Shown here: positions 1-15,170 of the stretch, piece by piece
Numbering within the stretch: the stretch's first letter is position 1
Layout of the letters: each line of letters starts with the position of its first letter
Origin: an uncultured Faecalibacterium sp.
GTDB taxonomy: Bacteria; Bacillota; Clostridia; Oscillospirales; Ruminococcaceae
NCBI GenBank assembly: GCA_937907025.1
Contig: CALESJ010000035.1
Location: 5,763-69,762, forward strand
Direction: 5' to 3'
Length of the DNA: 64,000 nucleotides
Program-made: the position numbers and the translations under genes
The notes under the pieces: model-generated
Told to the model about the DNA's origin: nothing
Database searches by the model: none
The model's input: the letters and a program-made list of their open reading frames with translations, nothing else

Positions 1-1544
1 TTGGACTGGCGCACGGCGGGGTCCAGCAGCGCCGCCACCAGCAGCACCGCACCCAGGCCCAGGGCAATGCCCAGGGTCAGGGTCATCTCACCGTCCATGC
101 CCAGGGCCAGGGACTGAGAGGTGCCGGTGCCCTTGCCGAAGACCATGAACATCTGCCCCAGCATGACGGCGGTGTCCCGCAGGTAGGAGGCATCGTACCG
201 GCCGCTGATGCGGCAGACCCCCTGCACCATGTACTGGGCCAGAGGCACCAGGAACCACAGGTTCCACACCACGGCCAGACCGGCGGCCTTGCACAGGCTT
301 GGCAGCACCGGGCGGCGGAAGGTACGTTTGGCGTAGAGAATGCAGAAGATGGCGGTGAGAAAACCGGTCATGACACTGGTCAGCAGATGGGTCTGCAGCA
401 GCCCCGTAAAACCGATGGCCAGGGAAAGCCAGCACCAGGGCTCGGCCTTTTCGCCGGGTTTCTGGCGGTAGATGCGCCACAGCCCGTACACCACCAGCGG
501 CAGGAACACCATGGCGGAATATTCACCCATGGAAGCCCGCACATACACGTTGGTCAGCCGGTAGGGAGCCAGCAGGTAGAGCGCCGTGCCGGCCAGGGCC
601 ACCATCTCGTTGTTGAACATGCGGCGCAGCACAAACCGGGTGACCAGGGCGGTGGCCAGGGTGATGGCCGCTACATACAGCTTGTACACCGTCTGCAGGC
701 TGAAGCCCACAATGCGCAGGAACGCTGCCGGGTACAAGAGCAGGTCGGCGTACATCAGGCTGAAAGGATAGCCCTTGCCGTTGACCAGGTCCGGGTCCAT
801 CCGCACCGGAAACTGCCCGGCCAGCAACCCGGCTTTCAGGCCCTCAATGCGGGACAGATGCACCGTCAGGTCGTGGCCGTAGATGATGTAGCCCAGCCCC
901 AGGGGCAGGCAGGCCACCGCCACCAGAGCCAGGGTGGCCAGCATGCTGTACCGGGATTCCAGAGTGCGCCAGGGCAGCGCTACCCGGCGGGTCACCACCA
1001 GCAGAATCCAGTCGATGGCCGCAAACAGCACCAGCGCGGTGAGAAAATGCACATAGGCGAAAGAATGGGTGGGGATGAGCTGGGCTCCGGTGATGAAGGT
1101 CACCTGACCCTCGCCGCAGTCGGAATAGAACTGCATCTGGGCCACATCGCAGCCGTGTTCCATCCACAGGGTAAAGACGGAACTGCTGCGCCCCGGGGGC
1201 AGGCTGGCCACATCGTACTGGGCGGTGGGCATGACCTCGTCCAGGAACCGCACCGTGCCGGTGCCGCCGTTGTTGGCGTAGGTCACCACCACCTGGTAGC
1301 TGCCGGGTTCAATGTCCAGCCAGCGGGTGGTGGCAAACTGGCCCACATAGTTTTCCACCTGGGTGCCCCGGGAATCATTCACGGCCTGTTCGGTGTAGGG
1401 AATGATCAGGTCGGGGGTCACGTCAATGGCTGTGCCCGCCCCGAAATCCGAAACAAACCGTGCCAGCAGGAAGATCACCTCGGCGGCCAACAGCAGCAGG
1501 AACCACAGGTTCTTGCGGGTACAAAAACGTTTCAAATGCTGCAT
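1..1544 (-). CDS. Polytopic membrane protein, YfhO/GT-C-like (3' end runs off the window)
   Basis: Absent from the ORF track because it has no in-window stop. ATG at 1544-1542 and the frame stays open to nt 1 (514 codons): MQHLKRFCTRKNLWFLLLLAAEV... It has an N-terminal TM, a ~150-aa extracytoplasmic segment, then many TM helices. The motif GHDLTVHLSRIEGLKAGLLAGQFP is YfhO-type. Track ORFs 88..480(-) and 387..1565(+) are shadows of this gene. Confidence 0.6.
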   Translation of the reverse strand, partial: MQHLKRFCTRKNLWFLLLLAAEVIFLLARFVSDFGAGTAIDVTPDLIIPYTEQAVNDSRGTQVENYVGQFATTRWLDIEPGSYQVVVTYANNGGTGTVRFLDEVMPTAQYDVASLPPGRSSSVFTLWMEHGCDVAQMQFYSDCGEGQVTFITGAQLIPTHSFAYVHFLTALVLFAAIDWILLVVTRRVALPWRTLESRYSMLATLALVAVACLPLGLGYIIYGHDLTVHLSRIEGLKAGLLAGQFPVRMDPDLVNGKGYPFSLMYADLLLYPAAFLRIVGFSLQTVYKLYVAAITLATALVTRFVLRRMFNNEMVALAGTALYLLAPYRLTNVYVRASMGEYSAMVFLPLVVYGLWRIYRQKPGEKAEPWCWLSLAIGFTGLLQTHLLTSVMTGFLTAIFCILYAKRTFRRPVLPSLCKAAGLAVVWNLWFLVPLAQYMVQGVCRISGRYDASYLRDTAVMLGQMFMVFGKGTGTSQSLALGMDGEMTLTLGIALGLGAVLLVAALLDPAVRQS

Positions 1545-1689
1545 GAAAAAACTCTCTTTTCTTGATGTCGTTTTGCGGCATGCCGCAGCTTTCTATCATT
1601 ATACGCGCTTGCCGGGACCGGCGCAAGCGTGTTATACTGTTCCCGGCGGCCACGCCGCCCCAATTTCACAAAAAGGCAGGGAAGAGCGG

Positions 1690-2184
1690 ATGGAGATCGA
1701 GCGCAAATGGATGGTGAAGGGCTGGCCCCAGGGGCTGGAACCGGAGCGGGTACAGCAGATGGACCAGGGCTATATCAGCGTGCGGCCCACGGTGCGCATC
1801 CGGCGGGAAGCGGTGCAGGGCGGCCCCACGGCGCTGGTGCTCTGCTTCAAGGGGGCACCCGACCCCACAGGCATGAGCCGGCAGGAGATCGAAACCGAGA
1901 TCGACGCCGACCTTTTCGCCAAACTGGAAGCCCTCATCGGCAAGCCTCTCATTAAAAAAGAGCGCCGGGACTATGCCCTGCCCGGCGGACTGCACCTGGA
2001 AGTGAACGAGGTGGACCCGGGCCAGCCGGGACACTTTCTGTATGCCGAGGTGGAATACCCCGACGAGGACACCGCCCGCAGCTGGACCCCGGCGGATGCG
2101 GGGCTGGAAGACTACCTCACCGACGAAGTCACGGGGCAGAAAGGCGCCAGCATGGGCGAATACTGGGAACAGACCCGTGGCTGA
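1690..2184 (+). CDS. CYTH-domain protein (CyaB/triphosphatase-like)
   Basis: In-frame ATG at 1690 within track ORF 1402..2184. MEIERKWMVKGWP carries the ExExK CYTH signature, followed by later acidic strands (EIETEID, LEVNEVD, YAEVEY). Confidence 0.75.
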   Translation: MEIERKWMVKGWPQGLEPERVQQMDQGYISVRPTVRIRREAVQGGPTALVLCFKGAPDPTGMSRQEIETEIDADLFAKLEALIGKPLIKKERRDYALPGGLHLEVNEVDPGQPGHFLYAEVEYPDEDTARSWTPADAGLEDYLTDEVTGQKGASMGEYWEQTRG

Positions 2185-2205
2185 GCTTTTATCATAAGAC
2201 AAAAC

Positions 2206-2254
2206 AAACCGGCGCGAAGAAAGCGACTTTGCCTTCTCCGCGCCGGTTTTGCTT
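2206..2254. terminator. Bidirectional intrinsic terminator between the convergent CYTH gene and murE
   Basis: CCGGCGCG (2209-2216) pairs with CGCGCCGG (2239-2246). The stem is flanked by an A-run upstream and a T-run downstream. Confidence 0.6.
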
Positions 2255-2265
2255 TTGTGTCGGGT

Positions 2266-3762
2266 TTATTCGATGCCCTTTTCGGCGGCGTATTCCTCAA
2301 TGAGCTCCCGCTCCAGGAAGGGGGTCTTCACGCCTTCCCGGTCGCGGTACGCCTCGTGGCCCTTGCCGATAACGGCGATCAGGTCGCCTTCCTCGGCGTG
2401 GTCGATGGCATAATGCAGGGCGTCCAGACGGTCGGGAATCTCCACATAGGGCACGTTGAGGTTGCCCTTGGCGATGCCTTCCTTGATGTCGGCAATGATG
2501 TCCTCCACCTTCTCAAACCGGTTGTTGTCCTCGGTGAGAATGAGGAAATCCGCCATCTTGGAGCAGACCTCGCCCATGCCGTACCGGCGCAGCTTGCTGC
2601 GGTTGCCGCCGCAGCCGAACACCACTACCATCCGGTGGGGATTGTAGGCTTTCAGGGTTTCCATCAGGCTCTCGGCGGCCGCCTCGTTGTGGGCGTAGTC
2701 GATGAGGATGGTAAAGTGGTGGCTGATGGGCACCAGCTCCACACGGCCCTTGACCACCGTGTCCCGCAGGCCCTGGTGGATGGGCTCATCGGCCAGACCC
2801 AGCGCCTTGCCCACCCCGATGGTGGCCAGAGCGTTGTAGATGCTGAACCGTCCCGGCATGCCCACCTGCACGTCCATGGTGTGGCCGTCCGGCTCGGTGA
2901 GGGTGAACTCCACCCCCAGCATAGTCTTGTTGCGCAGCAGGCGGTATTCCTGCCCGGCACGGTAATCGGCGGGCTTGTCGATGCCGTAGGTGATGAGGTC
3001 ACAGGTGTGGCCTTCCAGCAGGGCTTCGGTGTTCTCGTCATCGGCATTCACCACACCGATGTCGCAGCGCTGGAACAGCTGGCCCTTCCAGCTGCGGTAT
3101 TCCTCAAAGCTGGAATGTTCGCCCGGGCCGATGTGGTCGGGGTACAGGTTGGTGAACACACCCACCCGGTAGTGGATGCCGGCCACACGGTCCATCATCA
3201 GCCCCTGGCTGGAAACTTCCATCACGCAGGCAGCGCACCCGGCGTCGGCCAGCTGGCGCAGGATCTTCTGCAGCTCGTAGCTTTCGGGGGTGGTGTTGTT
3301 CAGGTCGTAGTGGTGGCCGGGATAATACACGCCGTTGGTGCCGATCATGCCGGTCTTGTGCCCGGCGGCGGTCAGTACCGACCGGATCATGTGGGTGGTG
3401 GTGGTCTTGCCCTTGGTGCCGGTCACACCGATCATGGTCATCTCGTCGGCGGGATGACCGAAATACGCGGCGGACAGCATGGCCAGGGCGTAGCGGGTGT
3501 TTTCAAATTTCAGCACCGTCACATTGGGCATGCTTTCCAGCACATCGGGGGCCAGGTCATGCTGGATGACCAGCACCGAAGCCCCTTTCTCCACCACATC
3601 GGCGGCGTAGTCGTGGCTGTCGCGCTGGGTGCCCACGATGCACACGAACAGGCCCCCGGGAACCACCTTGCGCGAATCATAGAAGATGTCGGCCACTTCG
3701 ACGTGCAGGGGGCCCTGCACCACCTTGTAGCGCAGTCCTTTCAGCAGTTGCTTGAGCAGCAT
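2266..3762 (-). CDS. murE: UDP-N-acetylmuramoyl-L-alanyl-D-glutamate--diamino acid ligase (MurE)
   Basis: 498 aa with a Mur-ligase P-loop (GVTGTKGKTTT), DYAHN and GCGGNR motifs. The specificity motif reads LTEDNNRFE. Confidence 0.9.
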   Translation of the reverse strand: MLLKQLLKGLRYKVVQGPLHVEVADIFYDSRKVVPGGLFVCIVGTQRDSHDYAADVVEKGASVLVIQHDLAPDVLESMPNVTVLKFENTRYALAMLSAAYFGHPADEMTMIGVTGTKGKTTTTHMIRSVLTAAGHKTGMIGTNGVYYPGHHYDLNNTTPESYELQKILRQLADAGCAACVMEVSSQGLMMDRVAGIHYRVGVFTNLYPDHIGPGEHSSFEEYRSWKGQLFQRCDIGVVNADDENTEALLEGHTCDLITYGIDKPADYRAGQEYRLLRNKTMLGVEFTLTEPDGHTMDVQVGMPGRFSIYNALATIGVGKALGLADEPIHQGLRDTVVKGRVELVPISHHFTILIDYAHNEAAAESLMETLKAYNPHRMVVVFGCGGNRSKLRRYGMGEVCSKMADFLILTEDNNRFEKVEDIIADIKEGIAKGNLNVPYVEIPDRLDALHYAIDHAEEGDLIAVIGKGHEAYRDREGVKTPFLERELIEEYAAEKGIE

Positions 3763-3769
3763 CGGCTCT

Positions 3770-5599
3770 TCACCTCTTTACAAAATATTCGTCGTACCAG
3801 ACAAGGAAGATAAACACACACCACAGCTGACGCCAGTTGTCGCGCTTGCCGCTGACATGCTGGTCCAGCATGCGGTTCAATTCTTTGGTATTGAAGAACT
3901 TTTCCGCCGCCGGGGTGGCAAAAGCCTCCCGCAGGATGGCAGCGTACTTTTCTTCCCGCAGCCAGGCCCGCACCGGAACGGGGAAACCCAGCTTCTTTTT
4001 GTCCGCCGTCTTGGCTGGAATGGTCATCTCGGCGGCGCCCCGCATGGCGATCTTGGTCTGCTGGGCGTTGACCTTGCACTTGGTGGGGATGCGGCAGGCC
4101 AGGTCGAACACCCGGCGGTCCAGGAAAGGCACCCGCAGCTCCAGAGAGTTGGCCATGCTCATCTTGTCGGCCTTGAGCAGGATATCCCCCACCATCCACA
4201 GGTTCAGGTCGCAGTACTCCATCCGGGTCACCGGGTCCTGGCCCTTGGTCATCTCAAAGAAGGGACGGGAGATGTCGGTGGGCTTGCACTTGCCGGTGTA
4301 GTTCTTCATCAGCTTGCGCTTGCGGCGCTCGCCCATCAGGTTGGTGTTGCCGATATACCGCTCCTCCAGCGGGCGGCCCCGGCGTACCAGGAAGTTCACC
4401 CCCGGCACCGGCGGCAGCAGGTTGGCCACCGCGCCCACGCTGCGGCGCAGCCACAGGGGCAGATGGTCGTACCAGCTCATGGTGAAGGGCTCTTTGTAGA
4501 TGTTGTATCCGCCGAAGAATTCGTCCGCACCCTCGCCGGACAGGCAGACCTTGACCTGCTTGGCGGCTTCCCGGTTGACGAAGTACAGCGCTACGCTGGC
4601 GGCGTCGGCCAGGGGTTCATCCATATGGTACTGGATGCGGCCCAGGTTGGCCCAGTACTCCTCGGGAGTGATGCGGTAGGCGTAATTCTTGACCCCAATA
4701 TGCTTGGAAAACTCGGTGGCATAATCGGTTTCGTCATACTGCTTGTTGGCAAAGCCCACGGTGAAGGTCTTATCCACCTTGGCCAGGGCAGCCATATAGC
4801 TGGAGTCCACGCCGGAGGACAGAAAGCTGCCCACCTCCACATCGGCGATCTTGTGGGCGGAAACGCTCTCCTGCATGGCGTCGCTGATGGCCTTCTCCCA
4901 CTCCTGCAGGGTGGGCTCGTCATCGGGCTTGAACTCGGGGCGCCAGTAGCGCTGCACCGTCACCTGGCCGTCTTTCCATTCCAGCCAGTGGGCGGGCATG
5001 AGTTTTTTCACGCCCTTGAAGAAGGTGTTTTCACCCGGGGAGAACTGGTAAGACAGATACAGGGAGAGCTGGTCCTCGTTGAGCTCCTTGTGGAAACCCG
5101 GATGGGCCAGAAAGCTCTTGATCTCGCTGCCGAAGAGCAGTTCGCCCGCCTCGTTCTGGTAGTAGTACAGGGGTTTGATGCCGAAATGGTCCCGGGCCAG
5201 CAGCAGGGTCTTTTCCCGCCGGTCCCACAGGGCAAAGGTGAACATGCCCCGCAGCCGGTCCAGCATGCCCTTGCCCCACTGTTCATAGCCGTGGAGCAGC
5301 ACTTCTGTGTCCGACCGGGTGGCAAAGGTATGGCCGGCGGCTTTCAGCTCCTCGGTCAGCGACTGGAAGTTGTAGATCTCGCCGTTAAAGACCACAACAA
5401 GGTTTTCATCCTCGTTGTACATGGGCTGACGGCCGCCTTCCAGGTCGATGATGGAAAGCCGCCGCTGGCCCAGGGCCGCCGGGCCTTCCAGAAACTGGCC
5501 CTGACCATCCGGACCGCGGTGGGCGATCAGGTCCATCATGGCCTGCAGAACTTCGCGCGCGTCATCCCGCGCGCCCACAAATCCAACGATTCCGCACAT
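3770..5599 (-). CDS. asnB: Asparagine synthase (glutamine-hydrolysing) family amidotransferase, paralog 1
   Basis: 609 aa. The N-terminus MCGIVGF carries the Ntn-amidotransferase catalytic Cys2. SFLSSGVDSS is the PP-loop. The stop lies 8 nt upstream of the murE start, so the two are probably co-transcribed. Confidence 0.9.
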   Translation of the reverse strand: MCGIVGFVGARDDAREVLQAMMDLIAHRGPDGQGQFLEGPAALGQRRLSIIDLEGGRQPMYNEDENLVVVFNGEIYNFQSLTEELKAAGHTFATRSDTEVLLHGYEQWGKGMLDRLRGMFTFALWDRREKTLLLARDHFGIKPLYYYQNEAGELLFGSEIKSFLAHPGFHKELNEDQLSLYLSYQFSPGENTFFKGVKKLMPAHWLEWKDGQVTVQRYWRPEFKPDDEPTLQEWEKAISDAMQESVSAHKIADVEVGSFLSSGVDSSYMAALAKVDKTFTVGFANKQYDETDYATEFSKHIGVKNYAYRITPEEYWANLGRIQYHMDEPLADAASVALYFVNREAAKQVKVCLSGEGADEFFGGYNIYKEPFTMSWYDHLPLWLRRSVGAVANLLPPVPGVNFLVRRGRPLEERYIGNTNLMGERRKRKLMKNYTGKCKPTDISRPFFEMTKGQDPVTRMEYCDLNLWMVGDILLKADKMSMANSLELRVPFLDRRVFDLACRIPTKCKVNAQQTKIAMRGAAEMTIPAKTADKKKLGFPVPVRAWLREEKYAAILREAFATPAAEKFFNTKELNRMLDQHVSGKRDNWRQLWCVFIFLVWYDEYFVKR

Positions 5600-5805
5600 A
5601 TACTTTCCCTTTCCTTGGGGTGCCGGTTGATTTTCGATACCCTATATTATACACACATGCCCCCGAAAAGAAAAGCCTGAACCGCTGAAAAGAATGTAAA
5701 AGTATCACAAGGCCCCGGGGGCGGGCTGATACCTTTGGACGATACAGCGCATACTGTAAGGGAAAAGACCCTGCCGGTGCCGTCCCGGCAGGCCACCGCA
5801 GATGA

Positions 5806-5835
5806 TTGACAACGGCACCGCTTTGGACGTAAAAT
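5806..5835 (+). promoter_or_regulatory. Sigma-70-type promoter for the ATP-grasp/asnB-2 operon
   Basis: TTGACA (5806-5811), an 18-nt spacer, then TAAAAT (5830-5835). It sits about 40 nt upstream of the ATG at 5877. Confidence 0.45.
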
Positions 5836-5876
5836 AATCAGGAATATACCATCTGTATGAACAGAGAGGGTTTTGT

Positions 5877-7112
5877 ATGCTGAAATTTCAACCTGTGCTG
5901 CTGGGCAGCGATGCCAACGTCTACGGCATGGCCCGCAGCTTTTATACCCAATACGGTGTCGTCAGCGACGCCGTCTGCAAGGGGGTCCTGGTGGCCTGCC
6001 GCAACACCCGCCTGGTGCGCATTGCGGTGGTGGAACCGGACCTGGAAAAGGACGAAGTCTTTGTGCGTACCCTGGTGGACTACGCCAAAGCCCATGATTA
6101 CCAGAACTGCCCGCTGCTGCTGGTTTCCTGCGCCGACGGGTACACCATCCTCATGGCCCGCCACCGCCAGGAACTGGAGCCCTATTTCCATTTTGCCTGC
6201 CCGGAACTGCAAACCGTGTTGGATCTGGACATAAAAGACAACTTTTATAAAGCCTGTGCCGCACATGGGCTTTCTTACCCGAAAACGGCCACCTGCACCG
6301 CGCAGAACTACAAAAATGCCGAATTTCCCTTCGATTTCCCGGTGATCATCAAGGCCAGCAATTCCCCGGCCTACTGGAACTGCTCCTTCCCCCACAAAAA
6401 GAAGGTGTTCCTGGCCCATGACCGGGTCGAGTACGACGCCATCACCACGGCCATCTACGGCAGTTCCTACCAGGACGACCTGATTTTGCAGGAGTACATC
6501 CCCGGCGACGACAACTGCATGCGGGTACTCAACGCCTACTGCGGTCTGGACCGCAAGGTCCACCTGATGGCCCTGGGCCGCCCCCTGCTGGAGGAGCAGA
6601 CCCCCGAGGGCATCGGCAACTATGCGGCCATCCTCTCCTCCCCGGAGATCAACGATTCCGCCCTGCTGGAGCGGATGCGCGCCTTCCTGGAAGATGTGGG
6701 CTGGGTGGGCTACGCCAATTTTGATATGAAGTACGACGCCCGCACCGGGGAGTATAAGCTCTTTGAGATGAACCCCCGCCAGGGCCGTTCCAGCTACTTT
6801 GTCACCGCCGCCGGCTACAACCTGGCCCGCTGGCTGGTGGAGGACGTGCTGGAAGGCAAGGATACCGGCTTTACCATCGCCGATACCGAAAGCCTGTGGA
6901 TGATCGCCCCCTACGGCGTTATCCGCAAGTACCTGAAAGACGAAAAACTCCTGGCCACTGCCGCCCGGCTGAAAAAGCAGGGCCGCAGCGCCCACCAGCT
7001 CTACTGCAAGGAGGATCGCAGCCTCAACCGGGGCCTGTGGTACCTGCGCAGCCAGCTGAACTACTACCGCAAGACCGCCCGCTATTACGGCAACAAGGGT
7101 CTGACCGACTGA
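5877..7112 (+). CDS. ATP-grasp carboxylate-amine ligase (COG3919 / D-aspartate-ligase-like family)
   Basis: 411 aa. The N-terminus FQPVLLGSDANVYGMARSFY is typical of the COG3919 ATP-grasp group that includes peptidoglycan D-Asp ligases. The central region has ATP-grasp features. SD GAGAGGG lies upstream. Confidence 0.7.
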   Translation: MLKFQPVLLGSDANVYGMARSFYTQYGVVSDAVCKGVLVACRNTRLVRIAVVEPDLEKDEVFVRTLVDYAKAHDYQNCPLLLVSCADGYTILMARHRQELEPYFHFACPELQTVLDLDIKDNFYKACAAHGLSYPKTATCTAQNYKNAEFPFDFPVIIKASNSPAYWNCSFPHKKKVFLAHDRVEYDAITTAIYGSSYQDDLILQEYIPGDDNCMRVLNAYCGLDRKVHLMALGRPLLEEQTPEGIGNYAAILSSPEINDSALLERMRAFLEDVGWVGYANFDMKYDARTGEYKLFEMNPRQGRSSYFVTAAGYNLARWLVEDVLEGKDTGFTIADTESLWMIAPYGVIRKYLKDEKLLATAARLKKQGRSAHQLYCKEDRSLNRGLWYLRSQLNYYRKTARYYGNKGLTD

Positions 7113-7132
7113 CCCAGAGGAGGATAACATCC

Positions 7133-9019
7133 ATGTGTGGTATCACCGGCTTTGCCGAACGCAAACATGACGCCGAAACCGCCCGGGCTACCGTGAAGGC
7201 CATGGCGGACCTGATCACCTACCGCGGCCCCGACGGGGAAGGGTATTATGTGGACGACCAGGTGGCTCTGGGCCACCGCCGTCTGTCCATCATCGACCTG
7301 GAGGGCGGCCGCCAGCCCATGTACAATGAAGATGAGAGCCTGGTGGTCATCTTCAACGGCGAGATCTACAATTTCCAGACCCTGCGCACCGAACTGGAAG
7401 CCGCGGGCCATACCTTCAAGACCCATTCGGACACCGAAGTCCTGCTCCACGGCTATGAACAGTGGGGCAAGGAACTGCCTGCCAAGCTGCGGGGCATGTT
7501 CACCTTCGTGATCTGGGACCGCAACACCAAAACCATGTTCGGCGCCCGGGACATTTTCGGCATCAAGCCCTTCTACTACTACAATGTGGGCGGGCTGCTG
7601 CTTTTCGGCAGTGAGATCAAGAGTTTCCTGGCCCATCCCGGCTTCAAGAAGCAGCTGAACGAGAAGCGCCTGCCCGAATACCTGAGCATCGAATACATCC
7701 CCAACGAGGAAACCATGTTCGTGGATGTGTTCAAGCTGCCCGGCGCCCACATGTTCACCTGGCACGACGGCAAAATGACCATCGAGCGGTATTACGACAT
7801 CCGCTATCATATCGACGAATCCAAGAGCCTGGAAGACTGGGAAAAGAAGATCACCGACACCTTTGCCGAGAGTGTGGCTGCCCATCAGATCGCCGACGTG
7901 GAGGTGGGCTGTTTCCTGTCCTCCGGTGTGGATTCCAGCTTTGTGGTCAACGAGGTAGCCAAGGGCACCCCCCATGTAAAGAGCTTCTCGGTGGGGTATG
8001 CGGAGGAAAAATACTCCGAGCTGCCCTACGCCCAGGCCTTCAGCAAGGAGATCGGCGTGCCCAGCATCGCCAACAAGGTGGACGCCGACCGGTTCTTTGA
8101 GGCCAACCGGGTCATCCAGTGGTATCTGGACGAACCCATGCCCAACCCGGCGGAGGTGCCGCTGTACTTCCTGGCCCAGAACGCCCGCAAGTACGTCAAG
8201 GTGGTGCTGTCCGGCGAAGGCGCCGACGAGCTGTTCGGCGGGTATCCCATGTACTGCCAGGCCGTCCATTTTGAGGATTACGGCCGCAAGGTGCCCAAGG
8301 CCGTGCGCAAGTTCCTTTCCCATACGGCAGCCAGAATGCCCCACTTCAAGGGTCAGCACTTCCTGGTCCGGGGCGGCCGGGAATCCTGGGAACGGTATAT
8401 GCGCGCCAACTATGTGTTTGAATCCCCGGCGGAGCGGGACCGCTACCTGAAGAAAAACTACGGCAACCCCGCCCCCGAAACCTTCTTCAAACCCTACTTC
8501 GACAAGGTGCAGGGCCTGGATGAGCCCACCCAGCTGCAGTGGGTGGATATGCATACCTGGATGCTGTACGACATCCTGCTCAAGGCAGACCGCATGAGTA
8601 TGGCCAACTCCCTGGAGCTGCGTGTGCCTTTCCTGGACCGGGAGATGCTGGAAGTGGCCCTGAGCATTCCCCGCCGCTACCGCTGCGACAAGGAACACAC
8701 CAAGATCGCCTTGCGCGGCGCTGCTCTCAAGCAGCTGTCTGAGAGCGTGGCCCAGCGCAAGAAGCTGGGCTTCCCGGTGCCGCTGAACGACTGGCTGCGC
8801 CAGGACAAGTACTACGCCATGGTGAAGGAAAAGTTCACCGGCCCGGTGGCGGAGCAGTTCTTCAACGTGCCGGAGATCTGCCGTCTGCTGGACGACCACA
8901 AGGCCGGCCGCGCCAAGAACATGACCAAGATCTGGAGCATTTACTCCTTCATCCTGTGGTATGAGCTGTATTTTGTGAACAGCGAACCGCCGGTAGGGGT
9001 GTATTCCGCAAAAGTTTGA
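7133..9019 (+). CDS. asnB: Asparagine synthase (glutamine-hydrolysing) family amidotransferase, paralog 2
   Basis: In-frame ATG at 7133 (MCGITGF) preceded by AGGAGGA, within track ORF 6896..9019. It aligns by eye with paralog 1 along its whole length, for example RRLSIIDLEGGRQPMYNED and FGSEIKSFLAHPGF. Confidence 0.9.
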   Translation: MCGITGFAERKHDAETARATVKAMADLITYRGPDGEGYYVDDQVALGHRRLSIIDLEGGRQPMYNEDESLVVIFNGEIYNFQTLRTELEAAGHTFKTHSDTEVLLHGYEQWGKELPAKLRGMFTFVIWDRNTKTMFGARDIFGIKPFYYYNVGGLLLFGSEIKSFLAHPGFKKQLNEKRLPEYLSIEYIPNEETMFVDVFKLPGAHMFTWHDGKMTIERYYDIRYHIDESKSLEDWEKKITDTFAESVAAHQIADVEVGCFLSSGVDSSFVVNEVAKGTPHVKSFSVGYAEEKYSELPYAQAFSKEIGVPSIANKVDADRFFEANRVIQWYLDEPMPNPAEVPLYFLAQNARKYVKVVLSGEGADELFGGYPMYCQAVHFEDYGRKVPKAVRKFLSHTAARMPHFKGQHFLVRGGRESWERYMRANYVFESPAERDRYLKKNYGNPAPETFFKPYFDKVQGLDEPTQLQWVDMHTWMLYDILLKADRMSMANSLELRVPFLDREMLEVALSIPRRYRCDKEHTKIALRGAALKQLSESVAQRKKLGFPVPLNDWLRQDKYYAMVKEKFTGPVAEQFFNVPEICRLLDDHKAGRAKNMTKIWSIYSFILWYELYFVNSEPPVGVYSAKV

Positions 9020-9027
9020 TGATTTTT
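9012..9027. repeat. Left copy of a 16-bp perfect direct repeat AAGTTTGATGATTTTT (candidate attL)
   Basis: Identical 16-mer at 16646-16661. This copy overlaps the asnB-2 stop codon (TGA 9017-9019). Confidence 0.8.
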
Positions 9028-9112
9028 GCTACCGTCAAGGGTTTAAATTGTAATTTGTGCGATTAACCAAAAAAGTCCATGCTGTTTTGTTGCTTTTTGA
9101 CGGGGGCGGTCT

Positions 9113-9174
9113 GAGCCCCTTACGGGTCTCCGACCGGCTGCGGGAGCCCCTGGGGGTCTCCCTCCGCGGCGGCT
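9113..9174. repeat. Two tandem ~31-bp units, each containing an imperfect hairpin GAGCCCC-N4-GGGTCTC
   Basis: GAGCCCCTTACGGGTCTCC at 9113-9131 and GAGCCCCTGGGGGTCTCC at 9144-9161. Confidence 0.5.
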
Positions 9175-9321
9175 GTGCCGCCATGGGCCAATTTTACAGT
9201 TAACAGCAGCACAAAAAGCCCGTCACCACGGTGGCGGCAGGCAAAAGGTCGCTGCGCGGCATTAAAACGCGCCTAACAGAATTCAATGATGCGCAATTCG
9301 TCCGCCTTCGCGGACTTACGA

Positions 9322-10419
9322 TTAATGACTCTTTTTGAAAAATTGGAAGTCCGGGACTCCGAAAAATTGAGCCACTCGGTCAGGGTGTTGCAGTGGCAAG
9401 TTCGGCAATTCCTGGGCGAACATCTGCGCCGCCGATTTTCCGCCGAACATCTCACGAGGGTATGCGTTCAGCCAGTTCTGGGCTGCTGTTGCTTCTTTTT
9501 GCGTTGCGTTTCGCAGACTTTGTCCTTTCGGGAACATCCGGCGCAGCATCTTATTTCCATGCTCATTGCTGCCCCGTTCCCCCGGGCTTTGCGGATGGGC
9601 GTAAAACACCGTCACACCCGTTTTATCCATACCAGCCTGGTCTGCAAATTCGGCTCCGTTATCTAATGTCAGGGTGCGGAACAGCACATTATAGTCGTGC
9701 TTACCGAAGTACCGTCTTAACCGCTGCAATGCACTCACTGTATTGACAGCGGTTTTTTCTTTTACCTTTATCACAATGGACAGTCGGTATTTCCGGTCAG
9801 TCAGGGTCAGGCAGCTTTCGCCGATGCCGTGCTTTCCAATGATGCTATCGCCTTCCCAGTGACCAAACTGCTGCCGAGTCGATATAGCTTTGTCCCGACG
9901 CTCAATCGAGCGGTGATCTGGCCGGCTCGTCCGCATACGAACCACTCTGCCGTTTCGCTTTTTGGGATGACCTACCGGCAAATGCTCGTACGTCACACTT
10001 TCAAACAGGCCGCCTTGAATATACCGGTAACAAGTTGTCTTTGAAATACACATTTCAAACTTGCCAGATTGAGCAACCTGCTTGATTGCCGCATAGGGGC
10101 TATGCTTTGCCAGAATCGCCCTTTCAAGCGCTTGGAGATAGGCACGATTCTTCCCGATTTTGAGGTCTGGACCATGGGCTGTCTTTTGATAATCTGCATC
10201 CCTTTGAGCCACATCTGCCGAATAGGTACGAAAATATACCCAAGTCCTATAATTCAATTGCGTGACCTGGCCCCGTTTGAGCTCCTTACTAATGGTCTGT
10301 TGAGATACACCAATTTCCCGTGCAATAGCCGTTTGGGTTAATCCTTGCCGGTGCAGACATTCGATTCTTGCACGTTCGTCCGCCGTAAGGTGCTTACCCT
10401 TTCTTCGATTCTCATACAA
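9322..10419 (-). CDS. IS30-family DDE transposase
   Basis: The maximal ORF is 9322..10440. HTH is LTQTAIAREIGVSQQTISKELKR. The DDE core reads HWEGDSI / TLDNGAEF / NEHGNKMLRR. AGGAG plus 8 nt favours a TTG start at 10419. A hairpin with a 17-bp stem (10439-10484) lies just upstream. Confidence 0.85.
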   Translation of the reverse strand: MYENRRKGKHLTADERARIECLHRQGLTQTAIAREIGVSQQTISKELKRGQVTQLNYRTWVYFRTYSADVAQRDADYQKTAHGPDLKIGKNRAYLQALERAILAKHSPYAAIKQVAQSGKFEMCISKTTCYRYIQGGLFESVTYEHLPVGHPKKRNGRVVRMRTSRPDHRSIERRDKAISTRQQFGHWEGDSIIGKHGIGESCLTLTDRKYRLSIVIKVKEKTAVNTVSALQRLRRYFGKHDYNVLFRTLTLDNGAEFADQAGMDKTGVTVFYAHPQSPGERGSNEHGNKMLRRMFPKGQSLRNATQKEATAAQNWLNAYPREMFGGKSAAQMFAQELPNLPLQHPDRVAQFFGVPDFQFFKKSH

Positions 10420-10532
10420 CACAATCACTCCTATAAACAATAAGCCGCCATCCTCTTACCGTAGCGGGAGGATAGCGGCTTATTTTTATGTTCCGGGCCA
10501 CGGCAGGTTGCAAAGCACACCCGCCCAGCGCC

Positions 10533-10613
10533 GTCAAGGGGCGCAATTTTTCACAACTTTCACCAGTGTGCGCACTGGTGAAACCCGTGAACAATCGCGC
10601 TTTTTCCCTTGAC
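10533..10613. repeat. 81-bp imperfect palindrome with a perfect 11-bp core stem
   Basis: Outer arms are GTCAAGGG (10533-10540) and CCCTTGAC (10606-10613). The core is TTTCACCAGTG-TGCG-CACTGGTGAAA (10558-10583). The arms in between match at about 12 of 17 positions. Confidence 0.7.
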
Positions 10614-10723
10614 TGCACTGTTCTGGCGTGCTCGGCTGCAATCAGAGGGTGAAGCGCCTGAGCGCTTCGCCCTCAATTCGATTTTGGGAGAACGGAAGAT
10701 ACAAATAACAGGAAGCTAACACG

Positions 10724-10942
10724 ATGCAAAAATACAAAATCACCGTTTACTATGATATGCACACACCTTGGTCGGGAAAAACATCTTACAACCTTGAAAA
10801 AGAAAAAATCATCCAGTCAGACACTTTTCCCTCCAATGAAATGGCATACGAAGAAGCCCAACTCATGTTCAAGGAACTGCAACTTATGTTTATCATGCAC
10901 GATATTTATGACTGCGGCTTCAAAGTCGAACAAATCGACTAA
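10724..10942 (+). CDS. Hypothetical 72-aa protein on the strand opposite the phage module
   Basis: AGGAAG SD 9 nt upstream. AT-rich codons. No recognisable motif. Convergent with the Zot-like gene. Confidence 0.45.
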   Translation: MQKYKITVYYDMHTPWSGKTSYNLEKEKIIQSDTFPSNEMAYEEAQLMFKELQLMFIMHDIYDCGFKVEQID

Positions 10943-10957
10943 AAGCAGTACACATAG

Positions 10958-11008
10958 CGGCGTGCGCGTGGCGGCGGGGCAGGAGCCCCGCGCCCCCACG
11001 CGCAGCGC
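10958..11008. terminator. GC-rich nested hairpin between convergent genes
   Basis: GCGCGTGG (10964-10971) pairs with CCACGCGC (10996-11003). An inner stem CGGGGC-AGGA-GCCCCG is enclosed. The U-runs are weak. Confidence 0.4.
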
Positions 11009-11011
11009 CGC

Positions 11012-11923
11012 TTACCGTTTTGCAGCAGAGCCAACACGGCGTTTGCCTTTGCGGCTCAAATTTGTGGCGGCATCCAGGCCGAGCGGCCCGGCCGGATTCT
11101 GATTCTGAATGATCTCGGCTTCAGTGAGCAAGTCGCCGTCCTCAACCTTCTTCCGCAGGTTGTCCACAACCGCCAGAGTATCATAAGCATTATAATCCTT
11201 GTCCAGGACAAACCACAAGCCGGCGGCCAGCGGCTGTATCATTTCGGCGTTGGTGGCGTTCTCCAGTTCCCAAGCATCATAGGACTGCCAGAGCTGGAAC
11301 CGCCACACTTTTTTGCATTGAATGACCGTATGCGTCACATCACGCATCAGCTTGTCCACATGCTGAAACCGCTGGGCGGAGCCGTAGAAACTGATATGAT
11401 AGTGACGGCAACACAGCAAGGTGTTGAGGAAATAGGCGTTAAAGTTATCCTTGAAACTGCGGCTGTTCATCTGGACGCTCAATTCATCCATAGCCACGAT
11501 GGTGACTGTTTGAGTATCGTTCTGATCATCCAACACCGGGGTCAATTTAGTCATGTTGACCACCTGGGAAAGAGATTCCAGCTTGATATACGGAATAGCC
11601 AAGTCCACATTGGAGAGGATAACCACCTTTTGAGTTACAAACTTTTGGCGGCGGCTGCACCAGACCGGGCGGTCATTGTACCGCTCATACAGCCCCACAA
11701 CCTTATGCACCAGGGAAAGCGTCTTACCAGAGCCAAAGTAGCCGCAGTAGATGTCCAGGGCACCCACCGGGCAGGTGTTCCAGCCCTTGTGTTTTATGTA
11801 GGCGACTGCATCCCGGACTCCATGCACGGAACACTTAACAGGGTGAAACACAATGCACCGGGCGATTCTGGACACGGCCAGGACCACCAGGAAAACCACA
11901 GCAAAGAAAATCATGTATCCCAT
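11012..11923 (-). CDS. Zot/pI-like P-loop morphogenesis ATPase
   Basis: 303 aa with an N-terminal TM helix, Walker A GYFGSGKT and Walker B TIVAMDE. GGAGGTGG SD. It is the last gene of the minus-strand module. Confidence 0.65.
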   Translation of the reverse strand: MGYMIFFAVVFLVVLAVSRIARCIVFHPVKCSVHGVRDAVAYIKHKGWNTCPVGALDIYCGYFGSGKTLSLVHKVVGLYERYNDRPVWCSRRQKFVTQKVVILSNVDLAIPYIKLESLSQVVNMTKLTPVLDDQNDTQTVTIVAMDELSVQMNSRSFKDNFNAYFLNTLLCCRHYHISFYGSAQRFQHVDKLMRDVTHTVIQCKKVWRFQLWQSYDAWELENATNAEMIQPLAAGLWFVLDKDYNAYDTLAVVDNLRKKVEDGDLLTEAEIIQNQNPAGPLGLDAATNLSRKGKRRVGSAAKR

Positions 11924-11924
11924 G

Positions 11925-12098
11925 TTACCACCTCCGGTTAAAGCTGTTCAGCCAGCTTTTGAGCATGCCGAACACGAACAGGAACAAACCGATTGCCAGC
12001 AGCACAGAGAACAGCCAGGGAATGAGTTCGCAAAGGTTTTGCGGAGCCTGCGAGGACAGGCCGAAGAATGTACAGAGATCAGCAAACAGACCGGACAT
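11925..12098 (-). CDS. Small membrane protein (57 aa), minor-coat/assembly candidate
   Basis: The ATG overlaps the upstream stop (TAATG) and is preceded by AAGGGGTGG. The sequence MSGLFADLC..LFSVLLAIGLFLFVFGML contains one TM helix. The track ORF 11925..12116 begins 18 nt earlier. Confidence 0.55.
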   Translation of the reverse strand: MSGLFADLCTFFGLSSQAPQNLCELIPWLFSVLLAIGLFLFVFGMLKSWLNSFNRRW

Positions 12099-12538
12099 TA
12101 AAACCACCCCTTCCATGCGAATTTAAAGAACGCGACCGCAACCACACCGACAACAAAAAGCAGCACCAGCACTTCTACTACACTGTATTCAGCAAACGGC
12201 TTTTCAAAAGCGCTTTGCGCCGTTTCGGGCGTGGAGGGCTGGGTATTCTGCTCAACTTTTGAAAGTGTAGATTCAATGCGGGTAAGCTGTCCGGAGTAGT
12301 CCGGAACTTCTGCAGCCGGAGCATCTTCCGCCGGTTCCTCGGCCAACTGCTCCAGAATAGCGTCAAGCGTTTCCTGAATACCAACCAACTGTTGGTCCTG
12401 CACTTGCACGGTCCCTTCCGCCGGTGTCGGTGCAGGCGTCGGGTCCACTTCTTCGGCATGGGCCCGATACTGATACACCAGCAACACCAAGAGAGATAGC
12501 ATCACCATAGATGCCACTTGAAAGTAACTTTTATACAT
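12098..12538 (-). CDS. 146-aa protein with a signal-anchor and a C-terminal TM (phage structural/assembly candidate)
   Basis: TGAGGTGA SD 8 nt upstream. It has N-terminal and C-terminal hydrophobic helices flanking an acidic, Pro-rich middle. Confidence 0.6.
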   Translation of the reverse strand: MYKSYFQVASMVMLSLLVLLVYQYRAHAEEVDPTPAPTPAEGTVQVQDQQLVGIQETLDAILEQLAEEPAEDAPAAEVPDYSGQLTRIESTLSKVEQNTQPSTPETAQSAFEKPFAEYSVVEVLVLLFVVGVVAVAFFKFAWKGWF

Positions 12539-12551
12539 TTATTCCATCACC

Positions 12552-12749
12552 TCACTCACCATTAAACAAACGGACCAGAAAGCCAAAAATCAAGAAACCT
12601 ACCATACTATAAAAAAACACGTCACGGAACGAAAAGGAAAATCCATAGATATTCATGGGAATGTTAATACCTTCCCATACAGTGGTCAAAAACTGCCCGA
12701 AAACTTCCACAACATCACCCCCGAATAAACTTGATAACCGCAAGAACAA
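12552..12749 (-). CDS. 65-aa hydrophobic protein (pVI-like candidate)
   Basis: The TTG start overlaps the 3' end of the upstream gene, so the start is uncertain. The C-terminal TM is FYSMVGFLIFGFLV. Confidence 0.4.
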   Translation of the reverse strand: MFLRLSSLFGGDVVEVFGQFLTTVWEGINIPMNIYGFSFSFRDVFFYSMVGFLIFGFLVRLFNGE

Positions 12750-14625
12750 TCATCAAGACAACACCGGCACCAAGAACATTAAGAACATCAGCGGGCAAGT
12801 ACCCAAAAGAAGCCTTCAAGAACTCACTAAAACCACTTGCCATGGTAAGCAGCGATTCAAAAAGGGAAAACAGACCAGAAATGACCGCCGCAAACAAGTC
12901 CCCAAGTCCATTCAATAACGAAAGTATCATATCAATCAGACCATTCAAATCGCTATCGCCATCACCGTCACCAGTCTCAGGAGTGGACGGCGGTAAAGTG
13001 GTTTCGGGATTGTCCGAAGGCGAAGGAGTAGGATCACCAGGATCAGGGGAAGGCGAAGGCGTTGACGGAGATTCCTCATCATTGCCATAATCAGATAAAT
13101 CGGTATCTTTGAGAGATTTCCACTCACCATCAAGATAGATTGCCGCATCAACAGATTGCCATCCATTGTTCTGATATTGCTGCACATCTTTAACGACATT
13201 ATCTTCCAGATAGACATATGTATAACCATTTATCGGATAAGTAGGACGCACACCGCCAACACGAATATCTGATACAGAGATATTAGACTTTACTGCAATT
13301 TGATTTTCAACTCCCTCCTCTGGCAACACCAACACACTGTTTGTATCAAACGGCTGAGAAGAAGGCGTGTAATCGGAAGTATACAGGATTTTATTAGAAA
13401 TTCGAATCTCATCAATAGCAAATGTAGTCCAGCCACAATACATCCACGGTCCTGTCCCTTTATTGTTATACGCCCGGACACCAGTATCGTTAGAGATCGA
13501 ATAACCAGAGCTGGTATAAATATTTGCGAAATTAAAAGAACTATCAATCGATTGTTTGGAACCGTTAACGAATACTACACACTTATTTGATACAGAATCA
13601 TAAGTAATAGCAACGCTGGTCCAAGTATTAAGAGGTAAATCAAATTTTCCAGTGTTAGAAGTATCGTAACAGTTATGAAATATACCGTTATACAAAAATG
13701 TGCCTAATACTTCGCCATTATCAAGAGCCGAACGTTTAGGATCTATACGGGCACTTAAATACTTAATCCGAAATTCAATTGTGTATTTAGGCATGGCACC
13801 AACAAAAGGAATTTCAAGTTCTGCAGTTGATGCAATATCATTAAAATACAATCCACCATCAAAAAAACCATCAGAAAGCGTAAGATAAGAATGACTTTCA
13901 ATATCGGGTGCTCCGTTCGCACTACTATCAGAATAATTGCCATCTAAATGATAAAGGGCCATCGTAGTACCATCATCTTCAACGACTTCTTTATAATTAA
14001 CCGCATCATATATAAAATACTGGCCCCAAACATCTTCCACAGTCAAATTATAAGAATTACGCCCATCCGGCAACTCATAATAATAAATAGAATTTTCATA
14101 GGCGGGCACATCGGGCGTACTTGTCGCAGCGGGATAAGAAACAATTACATATGTATAATAATTTGTAATATAATAGTTTTGATTGTTTACAGTATAGGTG
14201 TAGTAATTATATGTCTGATTATAGTTATAAGTGTTGTAAGTATAACTATTCATGACGTAATTGTTTGTAGAAGAAGAATAACTTGTATAATTCAATGTAT
14301 TGTTTTGCTGATTCACAATGGAGTAATAACTGGTATAGCCAGAATTATACAGATTATCAGCGCCACCATCAGAAGGAGCCGTATAATACTTTTTACCCGT
14401 TTCCAAGCGGCCCGCACCACCACCACGATATGAGCCACCGCCAGCCTGAAAAAGAAGGCAACCACACTCAGGACAATACATGTGCTCAGTCAATACGCCC
14501 TGAAACTGAACAGTACCACAATTCGGGCAATGAGTGTTATACGAAGTAGCAAAAGCAGAAGCAGGCAAGAGAAGAGAAACAAGCAAAAGCACAGCCACAA
14601 AAACGCAACAACATTTTTTACACAT
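12715..14625 (-). CDS. pIII-like adsorption/minor coat protein (signal peptide, N/Y-rich region, LamG-like domain, P/S linker, C-terminal anchor)
   Basis: ATG at 14625 with AAGAGGTG SD. The track ORF begins at 14664. The signal peptide ends AFA. Two CxxC pairs are present. The N/Y/T/S-rich tract is encoded at 14134-14355. The LamG-type ending reads FAIDEIRISNKILY. A PSTPSPSPDPGDPTPSP linker precedes a hydrophobic C-terminus. Confidence 0.7.
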   Translation of the reverse strand: MCKKCCCVFVAVLLLVSLLLPASAFATSYNTHCPNCGTVQFQGVLTEHMYCPECGCLLFQAGGGSYRGGGAGRLETGKKYYTAPSDGGADNLYNSGYTSYYSIVNQQNNTLNYTSYSSSTNNYVMNSYTYNTYNYNQTYNYYTYTVNNQNYYITNYYTYVIVSYPAATSTPDVPAYENSIYYYELPDGRNSYNLTVEDVWGQYFIYDAVNYKEVVEDDGTTMALYHLDGNYSDSSANGAPDIESHSYLTLSDGFFDGGLYFNDIASTAELEIPFVGAMPKYTIEFRIKYLSARIDPKRSALDNGEVLGTFLYNGIFHNCYDTSNTGKFDLPLNTWTSVAITYDSVSNKCVVFVNGSKQSIDSSFNFANIYTSSGYSISNDTGVRAYNNKGTGPWMYCGWTTFAIDEIRISNKILYTSDYTPSSQPFDTNSVLVLPEEGVENQIAVKSNISVSDIRVGGVRPTYPINGYTYVYLEDNVVKDVQQYQNNGWQSVDAAIYLDGEWKSLKDTDLSDYGNDEESPSTPSPSPDPGDPTPSPSDNPETTLPPSTPETGDGDGDSDLNGLIDMILSLLNGLGDLFAAVISGLFSLFESLLTMASGFSEFLKASFGYLPADVLNVLGAGVVLMIVLAVIKFIRG

Positions 14626-14688
14626 AGGACACCTCTTGCGATCTTTTATTTTTGATGTTATCATTGAAAAAAAGGAGGGGTTGCAAGT

Positions 14689-14928: not shown

Positions 14929-14958
14929 AAAAGCCGGACGGCCTTGCGACCGCCCGGC
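14927..14958 (-). terminator. Intrinsic terminator directly after the coat-like gene
   Basis: On the minus strand, GCCGGGCGG-TCGCAAGG-CCGTCCGGC forms a 9-bp stem with one G-U pair, followed by UUUUUU. Confidence 0.75.
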
Positions 14959-14967
14959 ATGGGCTGA

Positions 14968-15129: not shown

Positions 15130-15170
15130 AGAGCTTTTACTCCTTTCTAGGTTTGTTGTATATGCACCTC

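Follow-up and report, generated by a model that had tools for sequence, protein, structure and literature searches.

A murE-linked locus of Gemmiger and its relatives predicted to amidate peptidoglycan precursors and ligate D-aspartate to them

Amidation of meso-DAP (mDAP) and substitution of its side chain set NOD1 recognition, sensitivity to lysozyme and other hydrolases, and the chemistry of transpeptidation. The enzymes that amidate mDAP include LtsA of C. glutamicum and the AsnB proteins of B. subtilis, L. monocytogenes and C. difficile. Peptidoglycan of the A4-gamma type, in which mDAP is combined with bridges of dicarboxylic D-amino acids, is a chemotype of actinobacteria such as Brachybacterium. 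To our knowledge it has not been described for Clostridia, and we know of no enzyme assigned to the addition of D-Asp to an mDAP stem. The asnB1 gene of L. plantarum is located together with murE, and mDAP is amidated in this species (PMC4155827). The genes aslA and racD form an operon, and the D-Asp is amidated by AsnH once it has been ligated (PMC4155827).

We analysed a window of 64 kb, i.e. the whole stretch of DNA presented above, for which the original prediction had proposed a single locus modifying the peptidoglycan stem peptide. The four genes of this locus were found at the coordinates first given for them, and matches to an aspartate racemase, murI and ddl, which had been named as lying in the same window, were also present. 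The features are as follows:

2206–2249, minus strand: terminator-like hairpin with a 19-bp stem, directly downstream of murE
2266–3762, minus strand: murE, 498 aa
3770–5599, minus strand: asnB-1, 609 aa
5806–5835, plus strand: sigma-70-like promoter (TTGACA, 18 nt, TAAAAT), 11 of 12 positions, a consensus match only
5877–7112, plus strand: ATP-grasp ligase, 411 aa
7133–9019, plus strand: asnB-2, 628 aa
47664–48419, minus strand: Asp-type amino-acid racemase (TIGR00035 asp_race, 168 bits), adjoining metG
53350–54096, minus strand: murI match, within an ORF at 53296–54114
54138–55205, minus strand: ddl match, within an ORF at 54111–55226

The asnB-1 gene lies upstream of murE and the spacer between them is 7 nt (3763–3769), not the 8 nt first reported. 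The gap between the ATP-grasp gene and asnB-2 was measured at 20 nt, the value already given, and contains a GGAGGA ribosome-binding site. The two gene pairs diverge from an intergenic region of 277 nt (5600–5876), and the putative promoter is located within this region, upstream of the ATP-grasp gene. The same four-gene cluster was seen in every close relative examined (12 loci in one set, and more than 25 named Gemmiger/Subdoligranulum loci), and the arrangement is therefore not a matter of chance. RNA libraries made from animal guts in two studies contain the locus. The contigs in these libraries span both gene junctions, which is compatible with expression of the locus but is no proof of it, and they end between positions 2212 and 2338, around the hairpin downstream of murE.

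The MurE protein has the three Mur-ligase domains (PF01225, PF08245 and PF02875) and is encoded by the sole murE of the genome. Its score against NF001126 was 457 bits (cut-off 373), a model that also accepts a DNPD-motif paralogue of the congeners, so that specificity is left unsettled by the score. At the position equivalent to the DNPR motif, by which the distal carboxylate of DAP is bound, the sequence is EDNNR, i.e. the Arg is retained and the Pro is replaced by Asn. This variant is found in all Faecalibacterium loci with a readable motif, and Lachnospiraceae have ADNSR at the same position. The protein belongs to a Clostridial lineage of MurE that is probably DAP-adding, since no murE other than a 72% orthologue was found in the genome of the type strain F. 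prausnitzii ATCC 27768, and meso-DAP is present in two other Faecalibacterium species (PMC8166934). A recent review table lists Faecalibacterium with the diamino acid meso-DAP only and no peptidoglycan type (PMC11382707). Since MurE looks DAP-type, the acceptor of the neighbouring ligase is probably mDAP and not L-Lys. The congeners have a second, alternative cluster in the order asnB, ATP-grasp, murE′, where the MurE′ motif is DNPD, the DAP-binding Arg is lost and the sequence is Lys/Orn-like; some species carry both clusters. The known D-Asp ligases use L-Lys precursors, with the epsilon-amino group of the stem-peptide Lys as acceptor, a counterpoint to D-Asp addition on mDAP next to a MurE that looks DAP-type.

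No Pfam or NCBIfam model was passed by the ATP-grasp protein of the window (P0003), the best matches being weak ones to ATPgrasp_Ter and CPS-like models. A full-length alignment (416 aa, E 6e-90) gave 39% identity with the AslA orthologue from a Lys-D-Asp-type Lacticaseibacillus, the reference in this comparison being orthologues, in D-Asp-type lactobacilli, of the biochemically characterised Aslfm/AslA. Further homologues were found in Pediococcus, Apilactobacillus, Fructilactobacillus and Periweissella; those of Periweissella are named ‘D-aspartate ligase’ in UniRef, and the same name is given by JGI to unnamed homologues. Placing the protein phylogenetically had been suggested as a check, and this put it in one full-length family and one tree with the D-Asp-ligase orthologues. 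In the midpoint-rooted tree, the Lactobacillaceae clade is nested among racemase-linked proteins of Oscillospirales and the clade of the window's ligase is the most divergent branch. An AF2 model (pLDDT 95.7) has an ATP-grasp fold, with CPS, L-amino-acid ligases, PylC and PurK, all ATP-grasp enzymes, as its best PDB matches (TM ∼0.55). Across 63 homologues, residues K159, K176, Q205, N299 and R301 are invariant and E297 is nearly so. By homology the protein is a carboxylate-amine ligase of the D-aspartate-ligase (AslA/Aslfm) family, and it is predicted to join D-Asp to the diamino acid at position 3 through the amino group of its side chain.

The racemase had originally been listed as a supporting gene, and its distribution makes it a true partner of the ligase rather than a mere neighbour in the window. 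In a sample of the bacterial family, 151 genomes from 135 genera, the ligase was found in 24 genomes, all 24 of which have a racemase of the same type (P0416; E ≤ 1e-46), located immediately downstream of the ligase in 15. Among the ligase-negative genomes, a racemase match at E ≤ 1e-44 was seen in only four, plus one (G100) where only a ligase fragment is present. In addition, two metagenomic proteins (P0145 and P0168) are natural fusions of the ATP-grasp ligase with an Asp_Glu_race domain. The window's own racemase is unlinked, at ∼40 kb from the ligase. It is predicted to be the supplier of D-Asp for the ligase.

These proteins might instead tailor peptidoglycan with another D-amino acid produced by the racemase (e.g. 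D-Glu or another acidic residue), or act on another acceptor such as a different carboxyl or amino group of the stem. Specificity is unreadable from sequence, the racemase also passes, narrowly, the cysteate-racemase model (200 bits against a cut-off of 190), the ligase clade is divergent, as described above, and the partner MurE is DAP-type and not Lys-type. We nevertheless regard this as unlikely, given the full-length identity of the ligase to orthologues from D-Asp-type lactobacilli and the combination of ligase, Asp-type racemase and AsnB, which is exactly the set of the D-Asp/D-iAsn pathway.

The linkage of these genes to murE takes several forms: asnB-1 and murE divergent from the ATP-grasp gene and asnB-2; asnB, ATP-grasp and murE′; and murE, ATP-grasp and racemase. 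Many members of the ATP-grasp module lie away from murE. Of the five genes, F. prausnitzii ATCC 27768 carries just murE, Anaerofilum only asnB1–murE, and G. formicilis the complete set. Of the original prediction, the cell-wall role is supported, but the single unit is not: the locus is made of two independent modules placed back to back. The ligase family has further fusions: P0243 is an ATP-grasp protein fused to a FemAB domain, and P0171 and P0265 are fused to DegT-type sugar aminotransferases. The gene for the racemase fusion P0145 directly follows two M23/LysM peptidoglycan hydrolases.

The DegT-type fusions, the module members away from murE and the versatile chemistry of ATP-grasp ligases would also fit a product other than peptidoglycan (e.g. 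a small peptide of D-amino acids or a modified secondary wall polymer) made by the ATP-grasp protein, AsnB-2 and the racemase, with the adjacency to murE being incidental. This is quite improbable, as adjacency to murE arose in at least three gene orders, one family member is fused to FemAB and a fusion protein has M23 hydrolases as neighbours, and the family includes orthologues of the Lactobacillaceae cross-bridge ligase.

AsnB-1 and AsnB-2 align along their full length, as first noted, with 52% identity over 618 aligned positions. Both begin MCG and contain FLSSGVDSS, and the glutaminase Cys and the PP-loop are thus kept in each; AsnB-2, which starts MCGITGF, matches the glutaminase and synthetase domains GATase_7 and Asn_synthase. 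A tree of AsnB proteins contains three clades, each with 100% support and each with a fixed gene partner. All 24 members of the AsnB-1 clade adjoin murE, also in genomes lacking the ATP-grasp gene. In the AsnB-2 clade, 20 of the 21 members adjoin the ATP-grasp gene or the racemase, and the last one (L056) shares its locus with the racemase at a distance of ∼1.5 kb. The two paralogues called in the original prediction are therefore separate orthologous groups with different partners (murE as against ATP-grasp/racemase). No member of the AsnB-2 clade turned up in F. prausnitzii or in Anaerofilum, and neither of them has the ligase.

When aligned with the canonical AsnB that this genome encodes, AsnB-1 and AsnB-2 show a ∼57-aa insertion, and in their Asp-binding motif Lys takes the place of Arg (DILLK in AsnB-1 compared with DV-LR); the Asp of the Asp-binding pair is kept in both. 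The mDAP-amidating AsnBs are reported to have lost the D/R pair that binds Asp and to have an additional loop at the acceptor site (PMC8554201). The insertion and the Arg-to-Lys change partly resemble these features. On gene context only, AsnB-1 is predicted to act on mDAP and AsnB-2 on D-Asp. Asparagine synthesis elsewhere in the genome, which had been proposed as a check, was found: AsnA is on contig C54 and the canonical AsnB on contig C21 (NF006949, 593 bits, cut-off 499). A reading in which both paralogues simply make asparagine, as redundant isozymes like those of B. subtilis, and the gene clustering is unrelated to the cell wall is very hard to credit. In its favour, both pass the generic asparagine-synthase model TIGR01536 with their catalytic motifs intact, and promiscuity has been reported for the B. 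subtilis AsnB (PMC8554201). Against it, the genome has these other asparagine enzymes, no AsnB-1- or AsnB-2-type gene was found in F. prausnitzii, the gene partner of each paralogue is strictly conserved from genus to genus, and both carry the insertion and the altered Asp-binding motif.

We consider it likely that the locus is a two-module unit for tailoring peptidoglycan precursors, giving a stem with amidated mDAP and a branch or cross-bridge of D-Asp or D-iAsn. This reading is based on gene identities, homology-based families, conserved linkage, phyletic patterns and fusions. Counting against it are the L-Lys acceptor of the known ligases, the distance of the racemase from the ligase in this genome, the narrow pass of the racemase in the cysteate-racemase model and the Asp that both AsnBs keep. 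In the first module, asnB-1 and then murE would be expressed as one operon; MurE would add the diamino acid at position 3, most likely meso-DAP, and AsnB-1 would carry out a glutamine-dependent amidation of its free carboxyl on the cytoplasmic precursor, as does AsnB1 of L. plantarum. The second module would consist of the operon of the ATP-grasp gene and then asnB-2, together with the racemase at 47664–48419. The racemase would make D-Asp, which the ligase would convert to an acyl phosphate, beta-aspartyl phosphate in D-Asp ligases, and transfer onto the amino group in the side chain of the diamino acid; AsnB-2 would then amidate the remaining carboxyl of the D-Asp, the alpha-carboxyl for an AsnH-type enzyme, to give D-isoasparagine, as in the pathway of AslA/Aslfm, RacD and AsnH. 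We infer D-Asp as donor, mDAP as acceptor and the carboxyl amidated by each AsnB. The expectation that the genes serve ligation plus amidation, with a separate amidation of the diamino acid, rather than asparagine biosynthesis is thus supported by genomics.

A further proposal, which we put forward tentatively, is that Gemmiger has an A4-gamma-like wall, in which mDAP amidated by AsnB-1 bears a D-isoasparagine branch or bridge and the acceptor of the ligase has switched from L-Lys to mDAP, and that the genus is polymorphic for wall chemotype. We found no muropeptide data for Gemmiger in the literature. If the chemotype is polymorphic, the muropeptides met by NOD1/NOD2, lysozyme and phage lysins would differ between closely related gut commensals. 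Few Firmicutes of human and animal guts are as abundant as Gemmiger, Subdoligranulum and Faecalibacterium, yet their peptidoglycan is essentially undescribed in its fine structure. The predicted chemistry would be one that has not previously been reported in an abundant group of gut commensals. A D-Asp branch on amidated mDAP in Clostridia is a predicted variant of the known trio of D-Asp ligase, racemase and AsnH, and the comparative data point to a candidate for the enzyme that would add D-Asp to mDAP stems. They also offer a natural series for experiments, from F. prausnitzii with murE only through Anaerofilum with asnB1–murE to G. formicilis with both modules.

The closest known systems for the second module are Aslfm/Racfm of Enterococcus faecium and AslA/RacD of Lactococcus lactis (EC 6.3.1.12). 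The window shares with them an ATP-grasp protein of ∼410 aa, full-length homology (39%) of this ligase to the Lys-D-Asp-type lactobacillar orthologues, and coupling to an Asp-type racemase, which is encoded next to the ligase in 15 of 24 genomes and joined to it in some metagenomic proteins. It differs in that the racemase of the window is ∼40 kb away, the ligase gene diverges from the murE side of the locus and precedes an AsnB gene, the MurE is DAP-type with (amidated) mDAP rather than L-Lys as the predicted acceptor, and the host is a Clostridial gut anaerobe. AsnB-2 is like AsnH of Lactococcus lactis and Lacticaseibacillus casei in being a long AsnB-type glutamine amidotransferase, in having its gene beside a ligase or racemase, and in its predicted action after D-Asp ligation; here asnB-2 is co-operonic with the ligase and the AsnH-like role is predicted.

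For the first module, AsnB-1 shares its AsnB-type architecture and the co-localisation with murE with AsnB1 of Lactiplantibacillus plantarum (PMC4155827). In comparison with the AsnB1/LtsA-type systems, asnB-1 and murE form a tight operon, with a spacer of 7 nt, and the MurE is of a distinct Clostridial lineage. Its extra insertion near the acceptor-binding motif may also liken AsnB-1 to the mDAP amidotransferases (PMC8554201); unlike them, it keeps the Asp of the Asp-binding pair. At the level of the wall, the predicted mDAP with a D-Asp-type bridge resembles A4-gamma peptidoglycan, from which the chemistry of Gemmiger, a genomic prediction, would differ by two extra amidations.

The putative cell-wall locus is made up of four genes, and its layout in the original prediction was correct, with murE, asnB-1, the ATP-grasp gene and asnB-2 all found in the places claimed for them. 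These genes and their neighbours on the right-hand side are as follows:

2266-3762, minus strand: murE
3770-5599, minus strand: asnB-1, with 7 nt between it and murE
5877-7112, plus strand: ATP-grasp ligase gene, with a 277-nt divergent spacer between it and asnB-1
7133-9019, plus strand: asnB-2, 20 nt past the ATP-grasp gene and preceded by GGAGGA
9322-10440, minus strand: IS30-like transposase, directly after the asnB-2 stop
15413-16117, minus strand: Rep_OBD replication protein, inside the low-GC island

There is a promoter close to consensus 5′ of the ATP-grasp gene, and 3′ of murE there is a strong hairpin. To the left, the cluster's neighbour is a gene without family matches that converges on murE; to the right come the IS30-like transposase and a mobile island of low GC content (together 9028-16800). 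The island has a GC content of 43-51%, compared with ∼60% elsewhere, and carries large ORFs without family matches. RNA-library contigs from other samples part from the window exactly at 9027/9028, which is therefore a strain-variable insertion junction. When riboswitches and leader RNAs were sought in positions 1-10000, the sole match was a chance-level miRNA. The window covers C35:5763-69762 of a host genome of 3.0 Mb with a GC content of ∼60%. The host's MurE shares 94% identity with the Gemmiger formicilis An812 protein and 97-99% with those of uncultured Gemmiger/Oscillospiraceae MAGs. Two D-Ala-D-Ala ligase genes in the genome score above the model cut-off, one in the window beside murI (54111-55226) and one on another contig (C44:116452-117477).

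The two long AsnB proteins align over their full length with 52% identity, and in each of them the N-terminal Cys and SSGVDSS PP-loop are conserved, as had been claimed. A role in housekeeping asparagine synthesis was rejected, since the enzymes that the original prediction proposed to look for elsewhere were found: AsnA on contig C54 (334 bits) and a canonical asparagine synthase B on contig C21 (NF006949, 593 bits against a cut-off of 499). Compared with this canonical AsnB, AsnB-1 and AsnB-2 both have ∼57 extra residues immediately ahead of the aspartate-binding motif, which reads D-ILL-K rather than D-V-L-R, with the Asp kept. AsnB homologues that amidate mDAP are reported to have an extra loop and to have lost the Asp-binding D and R (PMC8554201). 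As the Asp is retained here, the insertion and motif change are no more than suggestive.

To place the two paralogues, a tree was built from the long AsnB proteins of all the loci fetched, and this separated three clades, each with 100% support. Members of the AsnB-1 clade were always immediately upstream of the window's MurE lineage, including in genomes without ligase and racemase (Anaerofilum, G156 and G055/G182). Members of the AsnB-2 clade were beside a ligase or a racemase in all but one case, and the exception was in the same locus. Members of the third clade occur with the ligase, both in other genera and in an alternative cluster of some Gemmiger species. Three named genomes form a graded series: all five genes are present in G. 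formicilis An812, only asnB-1/murE in Candidatus Anaerofilum faecale, and only the window's MurE lineage in F. prausnitzii ATCC 27768, in whose genome long AsnB, ligase and P0416-type racemase (the type encoded in the window) were not found. The predicted cell-wall assignment is supported, and the AsnB clades and their partners define two modules rather than a single unit. The asnB-1/murE module behaves like the asnB1/murE pair of L. plantarum, which amidates mDAP (PMC4155827), and the other module (ligase, asnB-2 and racemase) resembles the AslA/RacD/AsnH pathway in its behaviour.

Two further arrangements of long AsnB genes were noted. In G156, a genome without the ligase, a 17.9-kb contig (L071, C19:1-17949) has at each end one of two identical, outward-facing asnB-1/murE pairs; this inverted duplication may be real or may be an assembly artefact. 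A fourth long-AsnB group, with 37-38% identity to AsnB-1, was seen in genera that have the canonical DNPR form of MurE (G102:C13:65647-67485, G120:C6:28330-30168 and G138:C4:162281-164116) and lies 7-8 kb from murE in two of the three. Its members may be further candidate mDAP amidotransferases.

The locus was present in animal-gut RNA libraries from two studies at ≥99% identity. In the best run, one contig contained murE and asnB-1 and another contained the ligase gene and the start of asnB-2. Such contigs bridge both gene junctions, and one also spans the divergent promoter region. Because these sequences are contigs, they indicate presence in RNA libraries only, and not a single transcript, strand or level; they are consistent with two operons without proving them.

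Searches of Pfam and NCBIfam with the ATP-grasp protein gave sub-threshold matches only (ATPgrasp_Ter and CPS-like models) and no curated family name. At E ≤ 1e-30 the family comprises 337 clusters at 50% identity, with members in Periweissella, Lacticaseibacillus, Pediococcus, Apilactobacillus, Fructilactobacillus and Bombilactobacillus. The name D-aspartate ligase is given to the Periweissella members by UniRef and to unnamed homologues by JGI. Several of these Lactobacillaceae genera have Lys-D-Asp cross-bridges. In the table of one review, Lys-D-Asp is given only for its L. casei and L. rhamnosus strains (PMC4155827). We compared the ligase with orthologues from D-Asp-type lactobacilli, which stood in for the characterised Aslfm and AslA; the Lacticaseibacillus protein aligned end to end with 39% identity (E 6e-90). 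In a midpoint-rooted tree of the family, the Oscillospirales proteins enclose a nested Lactobacillaceae clade. The AlphaFold model (pLDDT 95.7) has a generic ATP-grasp fold. A PDB sequence search gave no match, and a fold search with the model returned generic ATP-grasp enzymes only, at 12-16% identity, with no close solved relative, and was uninformative on substrate.

Natural fusions among metagenomic proteins link the family with the chemistry of D-amino acids and cross-bridges. The ATP-grasp domain is joined to an Asp/Glu racemase domain in P0145 and P0168, the former immediately preceded by two M23/LysM wall hydrolases. In P0171 and P0265 it is joined to a DegT-like aminotransferase, and P0243 (1235 aa) combines DegT, ATP-grasp and a C-terminal FemAB domain.

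The racemase is a genuine partner of the ligase. In a sample of 151 genomes from 135 genera of the host's family, the ligase was present in 24, and all 24 had an orthologue of the window's racemase (E ≤ 1e-46). Only four ligase-negative genomes reached E ≤ 1e-44, plus one (G100) holding only a ligase fragment. In 15 of the 24 ligase-positive genomes, the racemase gene begins within a few tens of bases 3′ of the ligase gene, which is the aslA-racD arrangement of L. lactis (PMC4155827). The genomes are kin rather than independent counts, but this linkage is kept through at least four gene orders, which argues for selection. The order asnB, ligase, racemase, asnB was seen in several genera. In the window's clade the racemase has moved away from the ligase, here to 47664-48419 on the minus strand, beside metG. 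Adjacency is not universal in the ATP-grasp family, as the Lacticaseibacillus orthologue stands alone with no racemase or AsnB adjoining. The window's racemase passes the asp_race subfamily model and, narrowly, the NCBIfam equivalog for the cysteate racemase CuyB (200 bits, cut-off 190), so automatic annotation may misname it.

The window's murE is the only one in its genome. MurE proteins in the family fall into three lineages: DNPR (canonical), EDN(N/S)R with the Arg kept (the window's) and DNPD with the Arg lost, the last found only right beside a ligase. The NCBIfam DAP model NF001126 was rejected as a test of specificity, as it accepts all three (583 bits for DNPR, 457 for DNNR and 431 for DNPD). 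The sole murE found in F. prausnitzii ATCC 27768 is of the window's lineage (72% identity, same EDNNR motif), and meso-DAP is present in two other Faecalibacterium species (PMC8166934); from this we infer mDAP as the residue added by the Gemmiger enzyme, in which case the acceptor for the D-Asp ligase would be mDAP or amidated mDAP in place of L-Lys. Genomes in which the canonical DNPR form of MurE occurs together with a ligase-racemase-AsnB operon (G102, G111, G120, G138 and G152) point to an mDAP acceptor too.

An alternative cluster, with its genes all in one direction and in the order asnB, ATP-grasp, murE′, is found in some Gemmiger species (L034, L036, L039-L041 and L043-L045, from G001, G002, G006, G008, G010, G020, G022 and G023). 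Its ligase is 35-39% identical to the window's and its MurE ∼40% identical. This MurE has an SDNPD motif, in which the DAP-binding Arg is lost (Lys/Orn-like), and GSVGGRT instead of GCGGNRS. G006 has the alternative-cluster murE only; G008 and G010 contain both types of cluster and hence two murE genes each. In a genome from another family of the order (G034), a 789-aa open frame (L038:4910-7279, minus strand) adjoins an ATP-grasp gene of the same family and encodes a divergent MurE-like ligase (motif EEDPGEE) with an acetylglutamate kinase (ArgB) domain. It may point to an ornithine-type precursor, or the frame may be a read-through of two genes.

The proposed cell-wall role is thus supported by independent genomic lines, namely homology, fusions, phyletic pattern, recurrent linkage, paralogue-specific partners and the housekeeping Asn enzymes. 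The predicted donor is D-Asp and the predicted acceptor mDAP, and the carboxyl targeted by each AsnB is likewise a prediction. A literature search on Gemmiger/Subdoligranulum peptidoglycan found nothing relevant. Each enzyme of the locus has a known counterpart; what is new is the predicted DAP acceptor, the predicted pairing of the branch with both amidations, the presence of these genes in abundant gut commensals of the Clostridia, and the fact that a second ligase-linked murE, of the Lys/Orn-like type, coexists in the same genus.
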